IMG/VR virus record: IMGVR_UViG_3300001919_000084
DNA length: 32,067 bases
Source of the DNA: a virus
Taxonomy: Duplodnaviria > Heunggongvirae > Uroviricota > Caudoviricetes
Reading direction: 5' to 3' (one strand)
Shown here: piece by piece, positions 4,430 through 11,564 of the stretch
How the letters are laid out: every line of letters begins with the position of its first letter
Position numbering within the stretch: position 1 is the first letter of the stretch
Program-made: the position numbers and the translations under genes
Notes under the pieces: generated by a model
Databases searched by the model: none
What the model was told of the DNA's origin: nothing
The model's input: the letters and a program-made list of their open reading frames with translations, nothing else

Positions 4430-5197
4430 TCACCCCATAGATATCGAGGTTTCGGTAATAATACGTTTTGCGTCCAACTCCCATGCTGTGATCACGTCTG
4501 CAATCACACTTATCGGCGCTTGTGTGGCATAAATACGCTCTTCTCCAATTGGTGCTGAAACATCCGTAAAGCCGACTTCTTTGGCATCCTGTATCGAGCA
4601 AATCAGCGGGACCGGGACACGAACAAGGTGAGTGGTTGCTTCAAATTGTGTACCTGTCATCAGGCGAAGCCGTGCGCCCAGCGAATTACACATCAGACTC
4701 ATGGTCGCTTTATCAGTTGCCATTAACGTAACGTCATACGTCAGAATGGCCTGGGTGTATTCCAGTTCTGCTAAAGGCGTTCCGGTATCTGGTTCGCAAA
4801 AACTGGCTACTTTTTTGCGGTCAATCTGCTGATCATCGTTGATATAATTGATATCCATAGTGCGTGAGATATTGACCAGGGGGAGAGCATCCCGGTTAAT
4901 GTTCTGGTTTTCAGGTTTTCTCCCTTGCCCGGCATTTGCGCGACGAACTGCTTTAAGAAACTCGATCGCATTGTCGAAACGGGCCATATAGACACGCTCT
5001 GCTGGTGGACGATTCAGGAATGACGCAAAGCGTTTTTCTTCCGGCGCGGGGGCCACCAGTAAGATATCAGAAAAAATGTTGCTGATTAGCGTCGCAAACG
5101 CGTTATCCACGTTTTCAAAGCCCGTGGTCTGGAATTTTCCTGTGCGTAAGGTTTGCCATTCACCGGTTCGCGCCAGGAGGGTTTTATTTGAAGTCAT
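4430..5197 (-). CDS. hypothetical protein (255 aa)
   Basis: Long ORF whose ATG overlaps the upstream stop (ATGA); no motif recognised. Confidence 0.5.
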   Translation of the reverse strand: MTSNKTLLARTGEWQTLRTGKFQTTGFENVDNAFATLISNIFSDILLVAPAPEEKRFASFLNRPPAERVYMARFDNAIEFLKAVRRANAGQGRKPENQNINRDALPLVNISRTMDINYINDDQQIDRKKVASFCEPDTGTPLAELEYTQAILTYDVTLMATDKATMSLMCNSLGARLRLMTGTQFEATTHLVRVPVPLICSIQDAKEVGFTDVSAPIGEERIYATQAPISVIADVITAWELDAKRIITETSISMG

Positions 5198-5985
5198 TCG
5201 ATCACTCCGTTTTGAGTCGTATCAAAATTCCTGGCAGGTATGCAGTAGTAAAGCGAACCAACATGCTGTGTGCCGTAGCTAAAAATACGGTGCACGTACC
5301 ACCAGCGGCGGGCTACGCCGTTTACCATCTCTTCATTCCATTCAAGAATTGAGCCGACGGGGACGTTATTTGCTGCAATACGCAGAATCAGAACATCATC
5401 GGTTAAGCCATCCTGCTCACCGTCTGCGTCAATCGCATGGAAAGAGTCACGCCCGTCAGGGTTATCCAGCACATAAACGATTTCAGGTTCCTGGTAAGTC
5501 AGTTCGCGTTGGTTGTTATCCAGTTCAGTGAATGACTCTTCTCCTGTTTCGTCGCTGACTACCCCATATGTGCCAACATCTGGTCGATATAAGAGAGCCT
5601 GAAACGCGTCTGGGCTGGATTCAATAATCAGCATCCAGTCTGCGCGGATTTGGTCGTTAAAGGCTTTATGCCCGTTATAGCGTGCTTTTAGCTGTGGAGT
5701 TGGTTCTCTGCCAGCCAGGGAAGGAGGAAGTATGGCTATATCTGATTCGCCAGCATCCGGAGTAAGGCCACCGTTGCTATCAGCAAAATTATCATGGCTA
5801 TCAGCTTTGGCGGCGGGTTGCTCTTCCAGAATGCTGAATGAATCCGAACCGGTATTGCCATGTTCCGGCGCGCCTCCTGCATTCGCTTCAATCGGCGCTG
5901 GCGTTTCTCTCTGCGTGCTGTCATGTTCTGACTCCTTACTTGCCAGGTTTGCATCGTCAGCAAACCATTCGTCAAAACGGCCCAT
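5194..5985 (-). CDS. hypothetical protein with acidic low-complexity N-terminal half
   Basis: ORF 5194-5997 trimmed to ATG at 5985 (GAGG 6 nt upstream). N-terminal ~100 aa are D/E/S/G/P/A-rich; the C-terminal ~160 aa look globular. First gene of the leftward operon. Confidence 0.5.
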   Translation of the reverse strand: MGRFDEWFADDANLASKESEHDSTQRETPAPIEANAGGAPEHGNTGSDSFSILEEQPAAKADSHDNFADSNGGLTPDAGESDIAILPPSLAGREPTPQLKARYNGHKAFNDQIRADWMLIIESSPDAFQALLYRPDVGTYGVVSDETGEESFTELDNNQRELTYQEPEIVYVLDNPDGRDSFHAIDADGEQDGLTDDVLILRIAANNVPVGSILEWNEEMVNGVARRWWYVHRIFSYGTQHVGSLYYCIPARNFDTTQNGVIE

Positions 5986-6079
5986 AAGCATCCTCAAAGG
6001 TCGATCTGTCAGGTATCGAAAGGAAGATTTTCGGGAGATTGTGATTTTGGATGAAGGAGGGGGAATTCATAAAATGCAC

Positions 6080-6108
6080 TTGCGCACAGTGCAACAGTGC
6101 GCTATAGT
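6080..6108 (+). promoter_or_regulatory. higBA promoter/operator candidate
   Basis: TTGCGC (-35-like), 17 bp, TATAGT (-10-like), with inverted repeat GCGCAC-N9-GTGCGC (6082-6102) and direct repeat ACAGTGC x2 overlapping the spacer; about 40 bp upstream of higB. Confidence 0.4.
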
Positions 6109-6147
6109 TATGGCATTCGGTAATCATCACGGAGGATCAAATGACTA

Positions 6148-6450
6148 ATGACCAAAAAAATTAACATAAAGGATTTCAGGGATGCGTGGCTTGATGATTT
6201 TTTTGAATTTTCAACACCACATAGAAAGATACCTCCTGATATTCATATGACATTGTCACGGAAGTTGGACATTATCAATGCCGCAACTACCTGTAAGGAT
6301 TTAAGATCACCACCAGGTAATCGGTATGAGGAACTGTCAGGGAAGCTAAATGGCTATTCATCAGTAAGGGTGAATAAGCAATATAGGTTAATTTTTAAGT
6401 GGGTTAACGGAAAGGCCGAGGACTTGTATCTCGACCCTCACAAATACTAA
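6148..6450 (+). CDS. higB: HigB-family toxin (RelE/ParE superfamily)
   Basis: 100 aa; KDLRSPPGNRYEELSGKLNGYSSVRVNKQYRLIFKWVNGKAEDLYLDPHKY matches the HigB killer-protein signature; GGAGG upstream; followed by a HigA-like gene. Confidence 0.8.
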   Translation: MTKKINIKDFRDAWLDDFFEFSTPHRKIPPDIHMTLSRKLDIINAATTCKDLRSPPGNRYEELSGKLNGYSSVRVNKQYRLIFKWVNGKAEDLYLDPHKY

Positions 6451-6520
6451 AACAGATACCCGGTTACGGACCGGGTTCTGACCAGAGTCCACTTAATACG
6501 TACGCTAGTAAGGGCAAAAA

Positions 6521-6859
6521 ATGAAACAGGCAACCAGAAAACCGACGACCGTAGGTGATATCCTGCTGTACGAATACCTGGAGCCGTTAGAGCTGAAGAT
6601 CAACGAGTTAGCAGAAATACTTCATGTTCATCGTAACACCGTAAGTGCTCTTGTTAATAATAATCGTAAGCTAACGATGGATATGGCATATCGCCTGGCA
6701 AAAGCATTCGATACTTCTGTAGATTTTTGGATTAATCTTCAGACCGCAGTAGATCTGTGGGAAGTCGAAAATGATATGCGCGTTCAGGAAGAGTTAAGTC
6801 GTATCAATACTGCTGAAAAATTTATTTCTCAGCGGAACCTGAATAAAAAAGCAGCCTGA
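6521..6859 (+). CDS. higA: HigA-family antitoxin (XRE-type HTH)
   Basis: 112 aa; VGDILLYEYLEPLELKINELAEILHVHRNTVSALVNNNRKLTMDMAYRLAKAFDTSVDFWINLQ is a typical HigA HTH; AAGGG upstream. Confidence 0.8.
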   Translation: MKQATRKPTTVGDILLYEYLEPLELKINELAEILHVHRNTVSALVNNNRKLTMDMAYRLAKAFDTSVDFWINLQTAVDLWEVENDMRVQEELSRINTAEKFISQRNLNKKAA

Positions 6860-6880
6860 TATAGTAAAACACATACAAAA

Positions 6881-6908
6881 AGCCCACTTAGCAAGTGGGC
6901 TTTCCTTT
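6881..6908 (+). terminator. rho-independent terminator after higA
   Basis: Stem agcccactt / aagtgggct with loop agc, followed by tttcctttg. Confidence 0.55.
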
Positions 6909-6915
6909 GTAATTA

Positions 6916-7116
6916 ATGAACATTAAACCTATCCGTACAGAACAAGATTATGAGGCCGCACTGCGTGCGGTCAAACCGATGTTCGATAACGAACCGGAAA
7001 TGAATACTCCGGAAGGTGATTTCTTTGAGGTTATGAGTCTTCTCATTGAGGAGTACGAGAAGAAACATTACCCAATTCAGCCACCATCACCTGTTGAATC
7101 TTTTAACTATCCATAA
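6916..7116 (+). pseudogene. HigA/antitoxin-like N-terminal domain fragment lacking an HTH
   Basis: 66-aa ORF MNIKPIRTEQDYEAALRAVKPMFDNEPEMNTPEGDFFEVMSLLIEEYEKKHYPI resembles the N-terminal domain of K-12-type HigA/XRE antitoxins but stops before any HTH; no SD, starts just after a terminator. Confidence 0.35.
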
Positions 7117-7137
7117 TAAAAGTAATCAGGATAAGCT

Positions 7138-7866
7138 ATGATGTCAGAAAAAGTTAAAGATAATCCGTCTATAAATGAAACAGAACTAAAATCATTTTCT
7201 GAAATAATAAAAGATAAAATATTTAACAAGGTTTTTGCATATGTTGTCATTTCTTTTCTAATTTTTAACTGGAAGGATATTTTAATTATATTAAAGTCAA
7301 AGGACGACATCCTATATACATTATCTATTGTTTTTGTTGGTGGTAATGTCCCGTTCTTTGATAATTGGATTGTATCCCCGTGGGTTTATCACTTTGTAAT
7401 CCCATTTGGTTATGGGGTATTTGCATCTGTGTTAGCTCCTATTCTCACACTGAAGATATCTAAGCTAACAAGTAAATTATACACTGAAATAAGATATTTA
7501 GATGAAGATGCTGATTATGATAAAAGAATAGAATTGCAAAGAAAGAAAACAAAGTTAAATCAAGCAACCAATGACGCTAAATATTCAAAACAAATCTTAG
7601 ATGAAAATGAAAATAAACTTAATGACCTAGCTACGAAACAGCGAGAAATTTGTGGCGCGATAAAACTATTGCATTCTGATGTTGGCAGTATTATTGAACT
7701 ATATAAAAATAAGGGGGTTAGCATTGAATCTCCGCAAGATTTATGTGATTTTATAGTCGCTATAAAAAGCACATCATTCTATAATGATGACAAGCATTTT
7801 AATAAATTGGTGTCTGATATTTCCAGTTTGTTTGATAATACTGGAATTGATCTTTCAAAAAAATGA
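7138..7866 (+). CDS. AT-rich membrane protein with cytoplasmic coiled-coil domain (accessory gene)
   Basis: 242 aa; AGGA 7 nt upstream; visibly lower GC than neighbours; predicted hydrophobic helices (VFAYVVISFLIFNW, ILYTLSIVFVGG, VIPFGYGVFASVLAPILTL) followed by a K/E/N-rich helical region. Confidence 0.6.
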   Translation: MMSEKVKDNPSINETELKSFSEIIKDKIFNKVFAYVVISFLIFNWKDILIILKSKDDILYTLSIVFVGGNVPFFDNWIVSPWVYHFVIPFGYGVFASVLAPILTLKISKLTSKLYTEIRYLDEDADYDKRIELQRKKTKLNQATNDAKYSKQILDENENKLNDLATKQREICGAIKLLHSDVGSIIELYKNKGVSIESPQDLCDFIVAIKSTSFYNDDKHFNKLVSDISSLFDNTGIDLSKK

Positions 7867-7872
7867 AAGCCC

Positions 7873-7911
7873 AGCATAAACTACTAGGCTATGTGTGGTT
7901 TATGCTTTTTT
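7873..7911. terminator. bidirectional terminator between convergent genes
   Basis: Stem agcataaac / gtttatgct with a 16-nt loop and a T6 run; overlaps the 3' end of the minus-strand gene. Confidence 0.45.
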
Positions 7912-9093
7912 CACGTACTCTATAAACATCTTCTCAGCCTGTTCTTGTGGCGTTCCAGCCATGACAAGCGCATCAATGAACGCCTGCTTCTTCAGTGCGA
8001 ACTGATCGGCAAGGCGTTGCTGAAGTTCCTTATTTTTCTGTTTCTCACGTTGCAAGGCCGCTTCTTTTGCAGCCGCCCGTTTTTTCTGTGCGTCTGACAA
8101 CTTTCTGGCCCTGGTCAATTGGTCACGTAGCTTGTCGATCTTGCCGTTGTCCTTTGCCAGTTTTGTACTTAAAGCTGCCTGGCGCTTCTGATAGAGCCTC
8201 CATTCGCGTTTGGCGGCTTCAACGTTCGTTTTACTGCTACGATTGCGATTAAACTCCTTCTCGTCTTCTTTTGAGAAGTGTTTGGTTGTACGGCGGCGAT
8301 CGTCACCAAATGCAATTTGCGTTGCAGCCTTTTGTAGCGCACGAGCAATACTCATTTGCCAACTGGCGGACTGTAACCGCGTCATTGAGTGGATCACGTG
8401 TTTACAGGCGACGCCTTGCAGCTTCGGGTTGCGAACTTTTGGATAGGCGTATTCTTTTGGCGGTGCCAGGGCAAAGTTACCCGCAGTGGCGATGTAACGA
8501 TACCAGTATTGATGACGACCACAGTCACAATCGAAAGACACTCGCCCGGCGCACAGTGATTTAGTGATTTTGAGAGCTGATTTATCGTCTTCTGCGATGT
8601 CATCAACCATCTGATCCCATTCTTCAAAGCGTATCCGGACGATATGGTGCTGGTGGACGGATATATCCGATGCTTCTACGCGGATATTAATCACATTGTG
8701 GCGAAGAGATACGGGTGTAGCTCTTTTGATACCAGATCCGTCATCCACGGCGTTATTTGCACGCTTAATATCGATTGCCTGGCTGGATGCCACCAGCTGG
8801 GCGTATGTGATGCCAGCCGTCTTGCTGTCATATTTTTCGCGCGTTTTACTCCGTAGCTTTTCGAAACCTTTCAGGTCGTCTCGCGTGAAGAACGTGCCGC
8901 CTTTTTTCTTCCCTAACTTGAGAATATCTTCGGCGGATTTGTTCCTCAGTCTACCTGGCGTCAGCGTCCGGTGAGCTTGTCGGCGCTTACGGGTTTGTTC
9001 TTTCCTGATAAGCTCGAATAAACGCGTGAAGTCCTTAGAGGACAGGCCGTCAGTGATATAGCGCCCGTCCTGGTTTTTCAGGAAATCAGGCAT
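7900..9093 (-). CDS. hypothetical protein with SWIM-type CxC...CxH motif and K/R/E/Q-rich coiled-coil tail
   Basis: 397 aa; FDCDCGRHQYWYRYIATAGNF...ACKHV fits a SWIM zinc-finger pattern; C-terminal 120 aa are charged and helical. Confidence 0.55.
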   Translation of the reverse strand: MPDFLKNQDGRYITDGLSSKDFTRLFELIRKEQTRKRRQAHRTLTPGRLRNKSAEDILKLGKKKGGTFFTRDDLKGFEKLRSKTREKYDSKTAGITYAQLVASSQAIDIKRANNAVDDGSGIKRATPVSLRHNVINIRVEASDISVHQHHIVRIRFEEWDQMVDDIAEDDKSALKITKSLCAGRVSFDCDCGRHQYWYRYIATAGNFALAPPKEYAYPKVRNPKLQGVACKHVIHSMTRLQSASWQMSIARALQKAATQIAFGDDRRRTTKHFSKEDEKEFNRNRSSKTNVEAAKREWRLYQKRQAALSTKLAKDNGKIDKLRDQLTRARKLSDAQKKRAAAKEAALQREKQKNKELQQRLADQFALKKQAFIDALVMAGTPQEQAEKMFIEYVKKA

Positions 9094-9415: not shown

Positions 9416-9608
9416 AACAAAGCCTCTCAGTCATAACCTGGGGGAAACTGTATGCAGGGTGTGAAATGCGAGAAACAGACAGGCCACCAGTTCAGGGGGA
9501 TGTGGCTCATAAATCCCCTCACTGGTGACAAGTGACTTTCATTAATCTTTATGCGGGGGCCAGCTTCATTTGCTGGCATTAGATTAAAAATTAAACGGAG
9601 TGAATGAC

Positions 9609-9743
9609 ATGGATGTTATCTTCGAATTATTAATTCTAATTGATCTGTTTATGAACGCTTCATTGACCACTCAAATACTCGCGTCAATATTTTTGTTACT
9701 CTTCTACCTGGTGTTGAGGGAGTTAACAAAGCTACTAATGTGA
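9609..9743 (+). CDS. small hydrophobic peptide (44 aa), candidate
   Basis: MDVIFELLILIDLFMNASLTTQILASIFLLLFYLVLRELTKLLM; GGAG 9 nt upstream; lies in a 328-bp gap between two minus-strand genes and ends next to the convergent stop codon. Too short for the ORF track. Confidence 0.25.
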   Translation: MDVIFELLILIDLFMNASLTTQILASIFLLLFYLVLRELTKLLM

Positions 9744-10397
9744 TCAAAGTATCACGGTATCTTCATCAACTTCTTTCCCAGCCAGTGACTTTGGCTGGGA
9801 GGTGCCTGCTTTAACTTTTTCATGCCCAATAATGGAAAGGAACGAAGCGAGTATGCCTGTTTTTTGCTCTTTCTCGACTGTACCGGTCATCTGCTCTACG
9901 TAATCCGCACTGGCAACGTTGTGGTATACGGTCGCGTAGCAACACAGGATCATCAGAATATGCTCCGGCCTGATATCCTGCCAGTTCACCCTGTAGACTT
10001 CTTCTCCGTTACCGTTGTATTCGGTATCAACGATAGAGTCGGGGATTTCGAAAGCACCTTTGTTATTTTGCGGCAGGGATAATAGTTTCTGGAGTTTTAA
10101 CTCTTTGTATCTTTCCATCCCGACGATGATTGCTGCTCTACCATCGGCATGACGGGTCTTGAGAGTCACCTGGCTTGCTCCGGTGCCAGCGGAGATCGTT
10201 GGCGTAATTTCGTCTACCAGTACCTTAAATTTGCTTTTCCGCAGGGCTGCTATAGCTGGAGGAATTTTTTGCTTTTGCTCCAATGCTGACGCGGGAAGGG
10301 GTTTTACTTCGTTAATAATGAGAGCACCGTCTTTCAGTATTGCAGTGAGCATTTGAGGCTTGCTGGTGGTCAGGCTGAATATTGCGATCTTTTCCAT
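9744..10397 (-). CDS. hypothetical protein (217 aa)
   Basis: ORF 9744-10439 trimmed to ATG at 10397 with strong SD GGAGGAAGGA 7 nt upstream; the listed first codon is GTG. Confidence 0.6.
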   Translation of the reverse strand: MEKIAIFSLTTSKPQMLTAILKDGALIINEVKPLPASALEQKQKIPPAIAALRKSKFKVLVDEITPTISAGTGASQVTLKTRHADGRAAIIVGMERYKELKLQKLLSLPQNNKGAFEIPDSIVDTEYNGNGEEVYRVNWQDIRPEHILMILCCYATVYHNVASADYVEQMTGTVEKEQKTGILASFLSIIGHEKVKAGTSQPKSLAGKEVDEDTVIL

Positions 10398-10424
10398 TGT
10401 CCTTCCTCCACGGATGACGGATAC

Positions 10425-10449
10425 AAAAAAAGGCCGCACATGGCGGCCT
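10425..10449 (-). terminator. leader terminator/attenuator candidate upstream of the 9744-10397 gene
   Basis: On the minus strand: aggccgc-catgt-gcggcct followed by T7, ending about 27 nt before the ATG at 10397. Confidence 0.45.
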
Positions 10450-10742
10450 GCTTTGGCGTTATGACTCCCTACCGCGCTTCGGCTGAAAGTTAATCGTCAA
10501 AAGAACCTTCAACGGGAGCCGTTAGCGCGATGGATTATGTGCAGTTTGTGATTTCCAAAATAGTGTCAACCACTTTTTGTGGATTTTATTTTTTGACAGA
10601 AATTTGGCCTAAATCATGTTGATTTGGCTGATTATTTTTATAACATAAAAGTCATTTTGATTGCATGAAGGACGGTGCAGTGAAGTTAAGGGTTTTAGGG
10701 ACCGCGCTCGCGGCTAAGATGGTAAGGTATGGAGTTAATGAA

Positions 10743-11564
10743 ATGTTTTTTATAAAAAATGGAAAAAGATTTTCCTCAACAATACTAGCTACTGTTGTTG
10801 CTCTTTTTGTCCCCACACTCACCTTTGCTTATGATTTTAGCAAAATTGACTGCAATTCCCCTAAAACTAGGCAGATGTTAATCGATGATTATAATGAACT
10901 GCTGAAGGACGATCAGGAAGCAATTTCTGTAATCGATGCTTATAATCAGATCAATGAGATAAGAGAAAAAAATAAGCTCCAATGCCTGGGAACGTATGAA
11001 TTCTCAGATGGAAGTGCGCTTAGGGTTAGATATAAGTTATATTTAAATAGCCTCGGCACCCCCATATATGAATTTGCTCCAGTTGAGGAGTTAACGCAAG
11101 ATGACGTAAGCGCATCTATCCAAAATATCCCTGCAACCACAGCGAGTAAGGCTGGAGGGAATGAAGAAACGTACTCCTGTAAAGTGGCTGTAACCTACAA
11201 TGGAAAGCGCTCTAACTATATGGGGGATACTGGAGTCTGGGATCGTGTGATTACTGACTATGGCACTTATTTCTCATGGGATTTGCCGCGCGGAAATCGA
11301 GGCAATAGTACAGGCCAGGATGCTTTTAGTGGCATGGACGAATCAAAGCCAGCATTAGAAAATAAGCTGGTGAGAAAGGAAGTCGAAAAAGATGGTAGCG
11401 TGGTTGATGAATTTAGGACTGATGTAAGTTATGGGGAAAAACAACCAGTTCATAAGTTTGTATATGCTCGTAGAATAAAACCTACAGGCATGAGAGAGTA
11501 TTATGTTACGGATTTAACAGACAAGCGGGCGTTTATGTTTCTGAATTGTCAGAGAGATTCGTGA
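10743..11564 (+). CDS. secreted protein of unknown function (signal peptide)
   Basis: ORF 10665-11564 trimmed to ATG at 10743 (GGAG 8 nt upstream); N-terminus MFFIKNGKRFSSTILATVVALFVPTLTFA is signal-peptide-like; AT-rich. Confidence 0.6.
   Translation: MFFIKNGKRFSSTILATVVALFVPTLTFAYDFSKIDCNSPKTRQMLIDDYNELLKDDQEAISVIDAYNQINEIREKNKLQCLGTYEFSDGSALRVRYKLYLNSLGTPIYEFAPVEELTQDDVSASIQNIPATTASKAGGNEETYSCKVAVTYNGKRSNYMGDTGVWDRVITDYGTYFSWDLPRGNRGNSTGQDAFSGMDESKPALENKLVRKEVEKDGSVVDEFRTDVSYGEKQPVHKFVYARRIKPTGMREYYVTDLTDKRAFMFLNCQRDS

Follow-up and report, generated by a model that had tools for sequence, protein, structure and literature searches.

Organization and allelic history of a hypervariable membrane protein gene, a candidate exclusion or abortive-infection gene, in the split tail operon of a D6-like phage-plasmid

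Organization of the locus

The stretch of viral DNA analysed here (the window: 32,067 nucleotides, IMG/VR virus record IMGVR_UViG_3300001919_000084, Duplodnaviria; Heunggongvirae; Uroviricota; Caudoviricetes) carries four plus-strand open reading frames (ORFs) between two minus-strand tail genes: a higBA toxin-antitoxin pair, a 66-residue ORF at 6916-7116, and, at 7138-7866, an AT-rich gene for a 242-residue predicted membrane protein that is the subject of this report. An initial annotation had singled out the last two of these ORFs, both of which we verified on the plus strand, as a HigA-like fragment followed by a possible defence or abortive-infection gene; its observation is confirmed below, and its interpretation is partly supported. 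From left to right, the features of the locus and the evidence for each are the following.

5194-5997, minus strand: homolog of P1 tail gene 7, the left conserved flank (D6 annotation)
6075-6093, no strand assigned: palindrome TGCACTTGCGCACAGTGCA, 5' of higB, read from the sequence and scored as a hairpin, followed on the plus strand by TATAGT
6148-6450, plus strand: higB, a RelE-fold toxin of 100 aa (PF05015 HigB-like_toxin, E=4.4e-35; phrog_3066)
6521-6859, plus strand: higA, a 112-aa helix-turn-helix (HTH) antitoxin, cognate of the higB at 6148-6450 (TIGR02607 antidote_HigA, E=7.9e-30, above cutoff; HTH_3)
6877-6905, no strand assigned: two-way hairpin separating higA from the truncated higA2, with the higher score as a minus-strand terminator
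6916-7116, plus strand: truncated higA2, 66 aa (homology to D6 orf72, PADLOC, PHROGs, RefSeq pseudogene)
7097-7098, no strand assigned: left recombination breakpoint of the variable cassette (end of D6 identity and of allele matches)
7128-7131, plus strand: Shine-Dalgarno sequence AGGA, 6 nt 5' of the ATG (sequence)
7138-7866, plus strand: hypervariable membrane protein gene, 242 aa (ORF, alleles, substitution ratios, structure model)
7868-7890, no strand assigned: hairpin used in common by the membrane gene and tail gene 25, which converge on it; the variable cassette has its right edge approximately here
7900-9093, minus strand: homolog of P1 tail gene 25, the right conserved flank (D6 annotation; 56.7% identity to P1 gp25)

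The guanine-plus-cytosine (GC) content is 0.29-0.31 (about 0.30) over 7000-7800 and 0.44-0.52 (about 0.48) on both flanks, which bears out the description of the membrane gene as AT-rich relative to its surroundings; the gene likewise has the Shine-Dalgarno sequence of its own that had been claimed for it. The hairpin at 7868-7890 is present just downstream; it was scored on the minus strand, as a terminator of the convergent tail gene, and a plus-strand alternative (GCATAAAC...GTTTATGC, then TTTTTT) is readable from the sequence. The palindrome 5' of higB is probably an operator for HigA that overlaps the higBA promoter.

Host element and insertion into the late operon

The 2.1-kb cassette matches phage D6 (MF356679) at 89.5% overall, and is matched in 102 of 5426 complete E. 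coli genomes, always on plasmids and never on chromosomes. Because its matches are to D6 and to plasmids only, the window is, on this comparison, a D6-like, P1-related phage-plasmid; as plasmids, elements of this kind occur in some 2% of the complete genomes of E. coli (95-102 of 5426). P1 genes 25 and 7 are separated by 3 nt and belong to the late operon 26-25-7-24-6-5, transcribed from LP26. In the D6 lineage a plus-strand cassette (higB, higA, higA2 and the membrane gene) lies between the homologs of gene 7 and gene 25, and, given the 3 nt spacing in P1, this cassette is an insertion that splits the late operon and is oriented antisense to it.

Among 50,697 phage records, D6 alone contains a homolog of the membrane protein; P1, 20 other sequenced phages matched through gp25, and Cronobacter phage JK004 are all without the gene. 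The comparison of presence and absence in related elements, which had been proposed at the outset, thus identifies a gene at a fixed site that is missing from P1 and JK004 and is represented by divergent alleles in near-identical D6-like backbones. With its deviant GC content, its Shine-Dalgarno sequence and hairpins, and its antisense orientation, the gene has the properties of moron-type or hotspot cargo. JK004 was also considered as an instance of a HigB, HigA and membrane gene trio, and was rejected because its third gene is a homolog of mat.

Window positions 5998-7899 were compared with P1 (L048 in our numbering of related loci, 76119-78068). Late transcription in the split operon would run through two hairpins that resemble minus-strand terminators, at 7890-7868 and 6905-6877, so that genes 7, 24, 6 and 5 would need their own promoter or read-through; no promoter of their own was identified for these four genes of the split operon. 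The terminator scan also lists the palindrome at 6075-6093, again as a terminator-like site on the minus strand. In one E. coli plasmid (NZ_CP134379.1, 34201-37637) that is otherwise 100% identical, the match is in two pieces covering 3437 bp, compared with 2101 bp in the query, and an IS3-family transposase is annotated under the split match, which suggests that this plasmid carries an insertion within the cassette.

A remnant of a second higA gene

The counterpart of the 66-residue ORF in D6 is orf72, a 119-aa protein with an N-domain and an HTH that is annotated as a HigA family antitoxin. The window and the orf72 region of D6 share 99.5% DNA identity up to 7097, where similarity ends; the HTH-coding half is absent, and the last 6 codons of the 66-residue ORF are new sequence. 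Its product is about 90% identical to residues 1-65 of orf72, matches positions 1-65 of the PADLOC profile PD-Lambda-2_B (E=3.3e-16) as well as the PHROGs phrog_10398 and phrog_1373 (the latter with E=2e-18), matches nothing in Pfam or NCBIfam at E<=0.1, has no HTH domain, and is recorded in RefSeq as a pseudogene without its C-terminus. No cognate HigB adjoins it in the window, where its upstream neighbours are the other higA and a hairpin. On these homologies the ORF is the remnant of a second, K12-type HigA gene (higA2) and not a working antitoxin gene, and its original description as the N-terminal domain of HigA only was accurate: it is half of D6 orf72, with the HTH missing.

Matches from E. 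coli genomes with other alleles end at query positions 218-219, corresponding to 7097-7098 in the window. To judge by these match ends, higA2 lost its HTH half in one allele replacement, whose left breakpoint is at 7097/7098. The 5' region of higA2 is present in 95 complete E. coli genomes, 50 of which contain the window-type junction as a single contiguous match, while the window allele is joined to an intact higA2 in none of the 95 carriers. The form with truncated higA2 is the commonest E. coli variant, and since it combines a truncated higA2 with an intact membrane gene, the membrane gene is independent of HigA2.

An independent truncation of a HigA-type gene (68 aa, no Pfam HTH match) is found in a Citrobacter-type phage-plasmid (L038, 3684-3890), directly 5' of a distant member of the family, where the fragment is preceded by a TacA/GNAT toxin-antitoxin pair; it parallels the truncated higA2 of the window.

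Allelic variability and selection

We compared 30 loci and binned nucleotide identity along the region. Between elements, 98-100% of positions agree in the flanks, to which higB, higA and the 5' part of higA2 belong; a drop, to 44-80%, is confined to about 7094-7893. For about 200 nt past the membrane gene (7894-8094), in the part of tail gene 25 that codes for its C-terminus, identity is slightly lowered (77-96%), and recombination tracts seem to end at variable points in the 3' end of the gene 25 homolog.

Relative to the window allele, protein identity is 96-100% within the window type, 61% for phage D6, 44-48%, 42% and 37-38% for other E. coli and Salmonella elements, and 33% for Enterobacter. 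Divergence at synonymous sites (dS) is saturated between alleles (1.26-1.79) and is 0.01-0.05 in the flanking genes (comparisons with D6 and L003), and the ratio of non-synonymous to synonymous divergence (dN/dS) between alleles is 0.24-0.35. Saturated dS combined with low dN/dS indicates that the alleles are old lineages which were brought in by recombination and kept functional. The same ratio at saturated dS, together with the homologs found in many elements, establishes that the 242-residue ORF is a real gene under purifying selection and not a chance ORF.

Disruptions affect both higA2 and the membrane gene. In L022 (3491-3871) and L027 (3537-3918) higA2 is split into two ORFs by an apparent frameshift; in other loci it is the membrane gene that is shortened (L024, 3811-4440) or split into two ORFs (L029, 3977-4707). 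Each of the two genes is therefore individually dispensable.

History of the site

The genes directly upstream of the membrane gene differ among related loci, and four architectures are found at the same site.

Architecture a: HigB (PF05015), HigA (TIGR02607), HigA2 (119 aa), membrane gene; D6 and others
Architecture b: HigB (PF09907, abutting), HigA2, membrane gene; L023, L025, L026, L029 and L030
Architecture c: K12-type HigB (103 aa), HigA (139 aa), membrane gene; Enterobacter L005 and L028, and Klebsiella IncF plasmids in which the membrane gene is cut by IS903B
Architecture d: HigB, HigA, truncated HigA2, membrane gene; the window type

Distant P1-like elements (L035, L036, L044, L045) carry a family member alone at the junction of genes 7 and 25, and from these lone copies it follows that the membrane gene is the older resident of the site. 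The suggestion that the membrane gene had inserted into a former toxin-antitoxin locus is accordingly incorrect. As read from the compared architectures, HigBA modules were added and exchanged upstream of an older membrane gene, and the truncation in the window came with allele replacement. The site just 5' of the membrane gene may be a landing or replacement spot for addiction modules, and the recurrence of a HigA-type neighbour there is a real pattern that is partly unexplained.

In Klebsiella, the trio of K12-type HigB, HigA and membrane gene is found on a Klebsiella pneumoniae IncFIB plasmid (L006, NZ_CP089990.1, 3153-5746) and on about 50 like Klebsiella plasmids. On these large IncF plasmids no tail genes are adjacent to the trio, and higBA is intact whereas the membrane gene is cut short; most of the records carry an IS903B annotation there.

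The HigA-type neighbour raises the question of whether the membrane protein might be the effector (a toxin or third component) of a HigA-controlled module, repressed or neutralised by an upstream K12-type HigA-like protein, as in the tripartite, HigBA-based system PD-lambda-2. A HigA-type gene with an N-domain and an HTH does stand directly upstream in three settings, namely D6-like elements (119 aa), Enterobacter and Klebsiella (HigB plus a 139-aa HigA) and a Citrobacter-type element (138 aa, L039), the membrane protein of the last being only about 18% identical to that of the window; the trio is also found on Klebsiella IncF plasmids without adjacent tail genes; D6 orf72 matches the HigA part of PD-Lambda-2_B with E=4e-43; and defence by PD-lambda-2 requires its third gene (PMC9519451). 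Set against this, the window-type form, the commonest in E. coli (50 of 95), has lost the HTH half of higA2 and retains an intact membrane gene, as do L022 and L027 with their frameshifted higA2, and many family members have neither a HigA nor a HigB neighbour. JK004 has a K12-type HigBA without the membrane gene, a TacA/GNAT pair takes the place of the HigA-type gene upstream in L038 and L050, and in architecture b HigA2 has a cognate toxin of its own, the abutting PF09907 HigB. We give a HigA-controlled effector a slim chance. Its strict form, an obligate HigA2-controlled toxin, was rejected because co-occurrence with an intact partner is not obligatory, as the 50 truncated copies among 95 and the standalone homologs demonstrate.

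Protein family and predicted structure

The membrane protein family is rare. An exhaustive HMMER search of 1.84 billion cluster representatives returned 41 relatives, and word-indexed searches, whether with a single sequence or with a 29-sequence profile, returned just the E. coli alleles and one distant group. Related loci were located with subfamily alignments, the full family alignment being without a conserved stretch. The only PHROGs matched by the 242-residue protein are of unknown function (phrog_8191 strongly, phrog_13369 and phrog_22645 weakly). A literature search by four protein accessions of the family returned no paper, and the gene is not mentioned in the D6 population studies PMC6799933 and 10.1101/2025.09.12.675607.

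By hydropathy, two strong membrane segments lie near residues 32-54 and near residues 82-108, with a further, short hydrophobic helix besides. AlphaFold2 was unusable with a 3-sequence alignment (predicted local distance difference test, pLDDT, 44.6) and reached pLDDT 81.7 with 29 sequences, for which it predicts helices at 13-28, 31-43, 45-53 and 58-65, a single helix at 81-191, and helices at 199-209 and 219-234. The resulting layout consists of an amphipathic helix (residues 13-28), a first transmembrane segment (TM1, 31-53), a short helix (58-65), a second transmembrane segment (TM2, 82-105) that runs on as a single helix to 191, and a small helical head (199-234). The expectation of a membrane protein thus holds, but its count of about three membrane helices becomes two transmembrane segments and a short hydrophobic helix.

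The family alignment defines a conserved core made up of the amphipathic helix with KDK-FNK, TM1 with an invariant N44, a conserved W45 and an ILIL-KSK-DI motif, and TM2 with conserved prolines. Pairwise identity among close alleles is 0.53-0.62 in this membrane core and 0.20-0.27 in the stalk and head. The stalk is a charged helix with a hydrophobic periodicity of 3.5-3.6 residues (the observed value was reached by 37 of 2000 shuffles), in agreement with the charged helical cytoplasmic domain that had been proposed, and it probably oligomerises. The density of lysine and arginine (0.18 before TM1, 0.08 in the loop, 0.12 after TM2) fits a protein that crosses the inner membrane twice and has both its ends in the cytoplasm. 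Pore domains of the potassium channel or ionotropic glutamate receptor type were the top Foldseek matches in the PDB, but with E>=1.5 and TM-scores of about 0.15; the idea of a pore-loop channel was given up, since the segment that follows helix 58-65 (VFVGGNVP), the putative filter, is not one of the conserved parts of the family alignment.

Two transmembrane helices followed by a charged cytoplasmic tail would also suit a protein that serves the element's own life cycle, whether in lysis timing (holin- or antiholin-like), in membrane anchoring of replication or assembly, or in plasmid maintenance. One distant relative does lie right after lambdoid holin, endolysin and spanin genes, and a family member occupies the same site throughout a clade of P1-like elements. 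The 135-residue stalk and head are nevertheless unlike holins, and no holin, spanin or partition family is matched at E<=0.1 (Pfam). The gene is antisense to the late operon; and P1, the 20 other gp25-matched phages and JK004 do without it. It diverges far more than the structural genes do, some copies are disrupted, and others lie outside phages, on chromosomes or islands, none of which is in keeping with a core function. We consider a life-cycle role quite unlikely.

Genomic contexts of distant relatives

Neighbourhoods of distant family members are of accessory or defence type. In a lambdoid prophage the relative lies between the spanin gene and HNH and terminase genes, directly after the genes for holin, endolysin and spanin; in a P2-like prophage it lies between gpS and gpV, beside a weakly HNH-like gene, and in another P2-like element it adjoins gpD. 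Outside these, one relative is found in an integrase island beside a P4-type integrase and a Ser/Thr kinase, one beside an AbiEii-type AAA ATPase and a C5 methylase, one adjoining a UmuC-like gene, and one alone on an Enterobacter chromosome. In a Citrobacter-type phage-plasmid of ~97 kb the relative is among tail genes, and what precedes it directly is a TacA/GNAT pair in L038 and L050 and a HigA-type gene of 138 aa in L039. An accessory or defence-type context, as first proposed, is therefore upheld by the antisense position in the late operon, by hypervariability, and by the neighbours of its relatives in prophage accessory slots, among them toxin-antitoxin pairs, a kinase, a methylase and an ATPase of the AbiEii type.

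Such a context would also accommodate a lysogenic-conversion or anti-defence factor not aimed at phages, one that alters host envelope physiology or colonisation or that inhibits a membrane-bound host defence. A moron-type position, AT-richness and hypervariability are equally typical of lysogenic-conversion and anti-defence genes, and anti-defence genes are plentiful in D6-like elements (10.1101/2025.09.12.675607). The relatives, however, lie beside defence-type genes and toxin-antitoxin pairs and not beside virulence genes, and an anti-defence gene would be expected early in infection and not antisense in a late operon; each of these two points is weak either way. We regard a factor of this kind as distinctly unlikely.

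Proposed function

The reading we prefer is that the gene is an accessory (moron-type) gene of a D6-like phage-plasmid and encodes a lysogen-expressed protein that acts at the membrane in exclusion or abortive infection. This proposal is tentative, and we place it somewhat short of an even chance. Because the gene is antisense to the late tail operon, it is probably expressed from the plasmid prophage, and the most likely role of its product would be to shield the lysogen and the element from other phages. The mechanism we favour is abortive infection, in which the variable cytoplasmic stalk and head would sense a phage product and the conserved membrane core would then disturb the membrane; a close alternative is that genome entry would be blocked at the inner membrane, as in classical superinfection exclusion. 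In either case the membrane protein would act alone, and the upstream higBA would be an addiction module in its own right. In a study of D6-like plasmids, higA-higB is listed just as a post-segregational killing system (PMC6799933).

A more specific version of exclusion or abortive infection is rather unlikely in our estimate. The gene would then represent a new, single-protein type of immunity gene, polymorphic and specific to the allele, with a pore-forming or membrane-disrupting core restrained by a long oligomeric stalk. Proteins of particular incoming phages, possibly rival D6- or P1-type phage-plasmids, would be recognised by the fast-evolving head and stalk, and allele swaps would retarget exclusion and mediate competition between otherwise identical elements.

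A DefenseFinder survey reported a complete known defence system in just one D6-like element (10.1101/2025.09.12.675607), so the membrane gene locus is not covered by current models. The D6-like group, with a complete recognised system in a single element, yet keeps a gene that behaves like an arms-race locus.

The proposal of exclusion or abortive infection must be tempered by several results that weigh against it. The 242-residue protein has no match in Pfam (with its SieB- and holin-type models), NCBIfam or PADLOC (PADLOC-DB v2) at E<=0.01; the best sub-threshold matches are eIF3_N in Pfam (E=0.027), one in NCBIfam (E=0.029) and LeoC in PADLOC (E=0.032), the last with no stretch passing the threshold. 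Foldseek returned nothing below E=1, with best values of E=1.5 in the PDB and E=1.7 in BFVD. Across Pfam, NCBIfam, PADLOC and Foldseek (PDB and BFVD), then, neither profile nor fold similarity to known exclusion, abortive-infection or defence proteins was found. Hypervariable accessory genes can also be genes for anti-defence, colonisation or lysis control. The disrupted copies (L024, L029 and those cut by IS903B in Klebsiella) mean that the membrane gene is dispensable. Within the window type there are 8-10 non-synonymous and 3 synonymous changes, too few sites for positive selection on this allele to be claimed. Finally, a consensus scan of 6905-7137 found no convincing promoter, the number of sites being equal to the shuffle expectation.

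Comparison with known systems

Inner-membrane exclusion or abortive-infection proteins encoded by prophages include P22 SieA and SieB, HK97 gp15, T4 Imm, lambda RexB and the lactococcal AbiZ type. They share with the window protein a small size, a temperate element as carrier, translation signals of their own, an accessory slot, and variability among related phages. The window protein differs from all of these in having no detected sequence, profile or fold similarity to them, and none of them is known to share its architecture of a two-pass core with an NW motif, a cytoplasmic helix of about 85 residues, and a head.

PD-lambda-2 consists of a HigB-like protein, a HigA-peptidase fusion and a P4-antitoxin-like protein (Vassallo et al. 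2022, PMC9519451). The resemblance lies in the match of D6 orf72 to the HigA-like N-terminal positions 1-119 of PD-Lambda-2_B (E=4e-43) and in the succession, in some relatives, of HigB, a HigA-like gene and a third gene. The differences are that the B-like protein has no peptidase domain (119 of 402 profile positions are matched by D6 orf72, and positions 1-65 by the window ORF), that the third gene of the window encodes a membrane protein with no PADLOC profile match, unlike PD-lambda-2 C, and that the higA2 copy of the window is without even the HTH.

The E. coli K-12-type HigBA system (a PF09907 HigB, and a HigA with an N-terminal domain and a C-terminal HTH) resembles the locus in that the 66-residue ORF descends from such a HigA, and its arrangement recurs in the loci of architecture b, where the PF09907 HigB abuts an intact 119-aa gene. 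By contrast, the window has lost the cognate HigB, has the PF05015/TIGR02607 higBA pair instead, and has the HTH deleted.

Antiviral hotspots of P2-like phages and P4-like satellites are fixed sites, flanked by conserved phage genes, with interchangeable, highly diverse cargo (Rousset et al. 2022, cited in PMC10879196). Distant family members are found in comparable places, one in a P2-like prophage, where gpS and gpV flank it, and another next to a P4-type integrase, whereas the cargo of the window is one gene family, present as divergent alleles and not as unrelated systems, in the tail operon of a phage-plasmid of the P1/D6 type.

As a possible new exclusion or abortive-infection protein encoded by a single gene, the window protein is a reasonable candidate that is easy to test, and many such candidates exist. 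If it does exclude phages, the catalogue of defence systems would gain a new membrane family of the single-gene kind, and exclusion would account for the tolerance of an antisense insertion in a late tail operon, while the locus would offer a natural series of alleles (37-100% identity in isogenic backbones) for the mapping of specificity. Should the protein not exclude phages, one would still have a clean case of cassette-type allelic replacement and of stepwise toxin-antitoxin decay in a phage-plasmid.

Additional observations outside the cassette

A second, unrelated RelE/ParE-HigA pair occurs between the gene 26 homolog and mat in some D6-like elements (L003, 5394-5965; L018, 6394-6687; L027, 7136-7417). 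The same slot in the window apparently contains just short ORFs (about 9416-9743). A second dip in GC content (0.36) is located at 10600-11000, downstream of the mat homolog (9744-10439) and near the position of a simB-like gene in D6.

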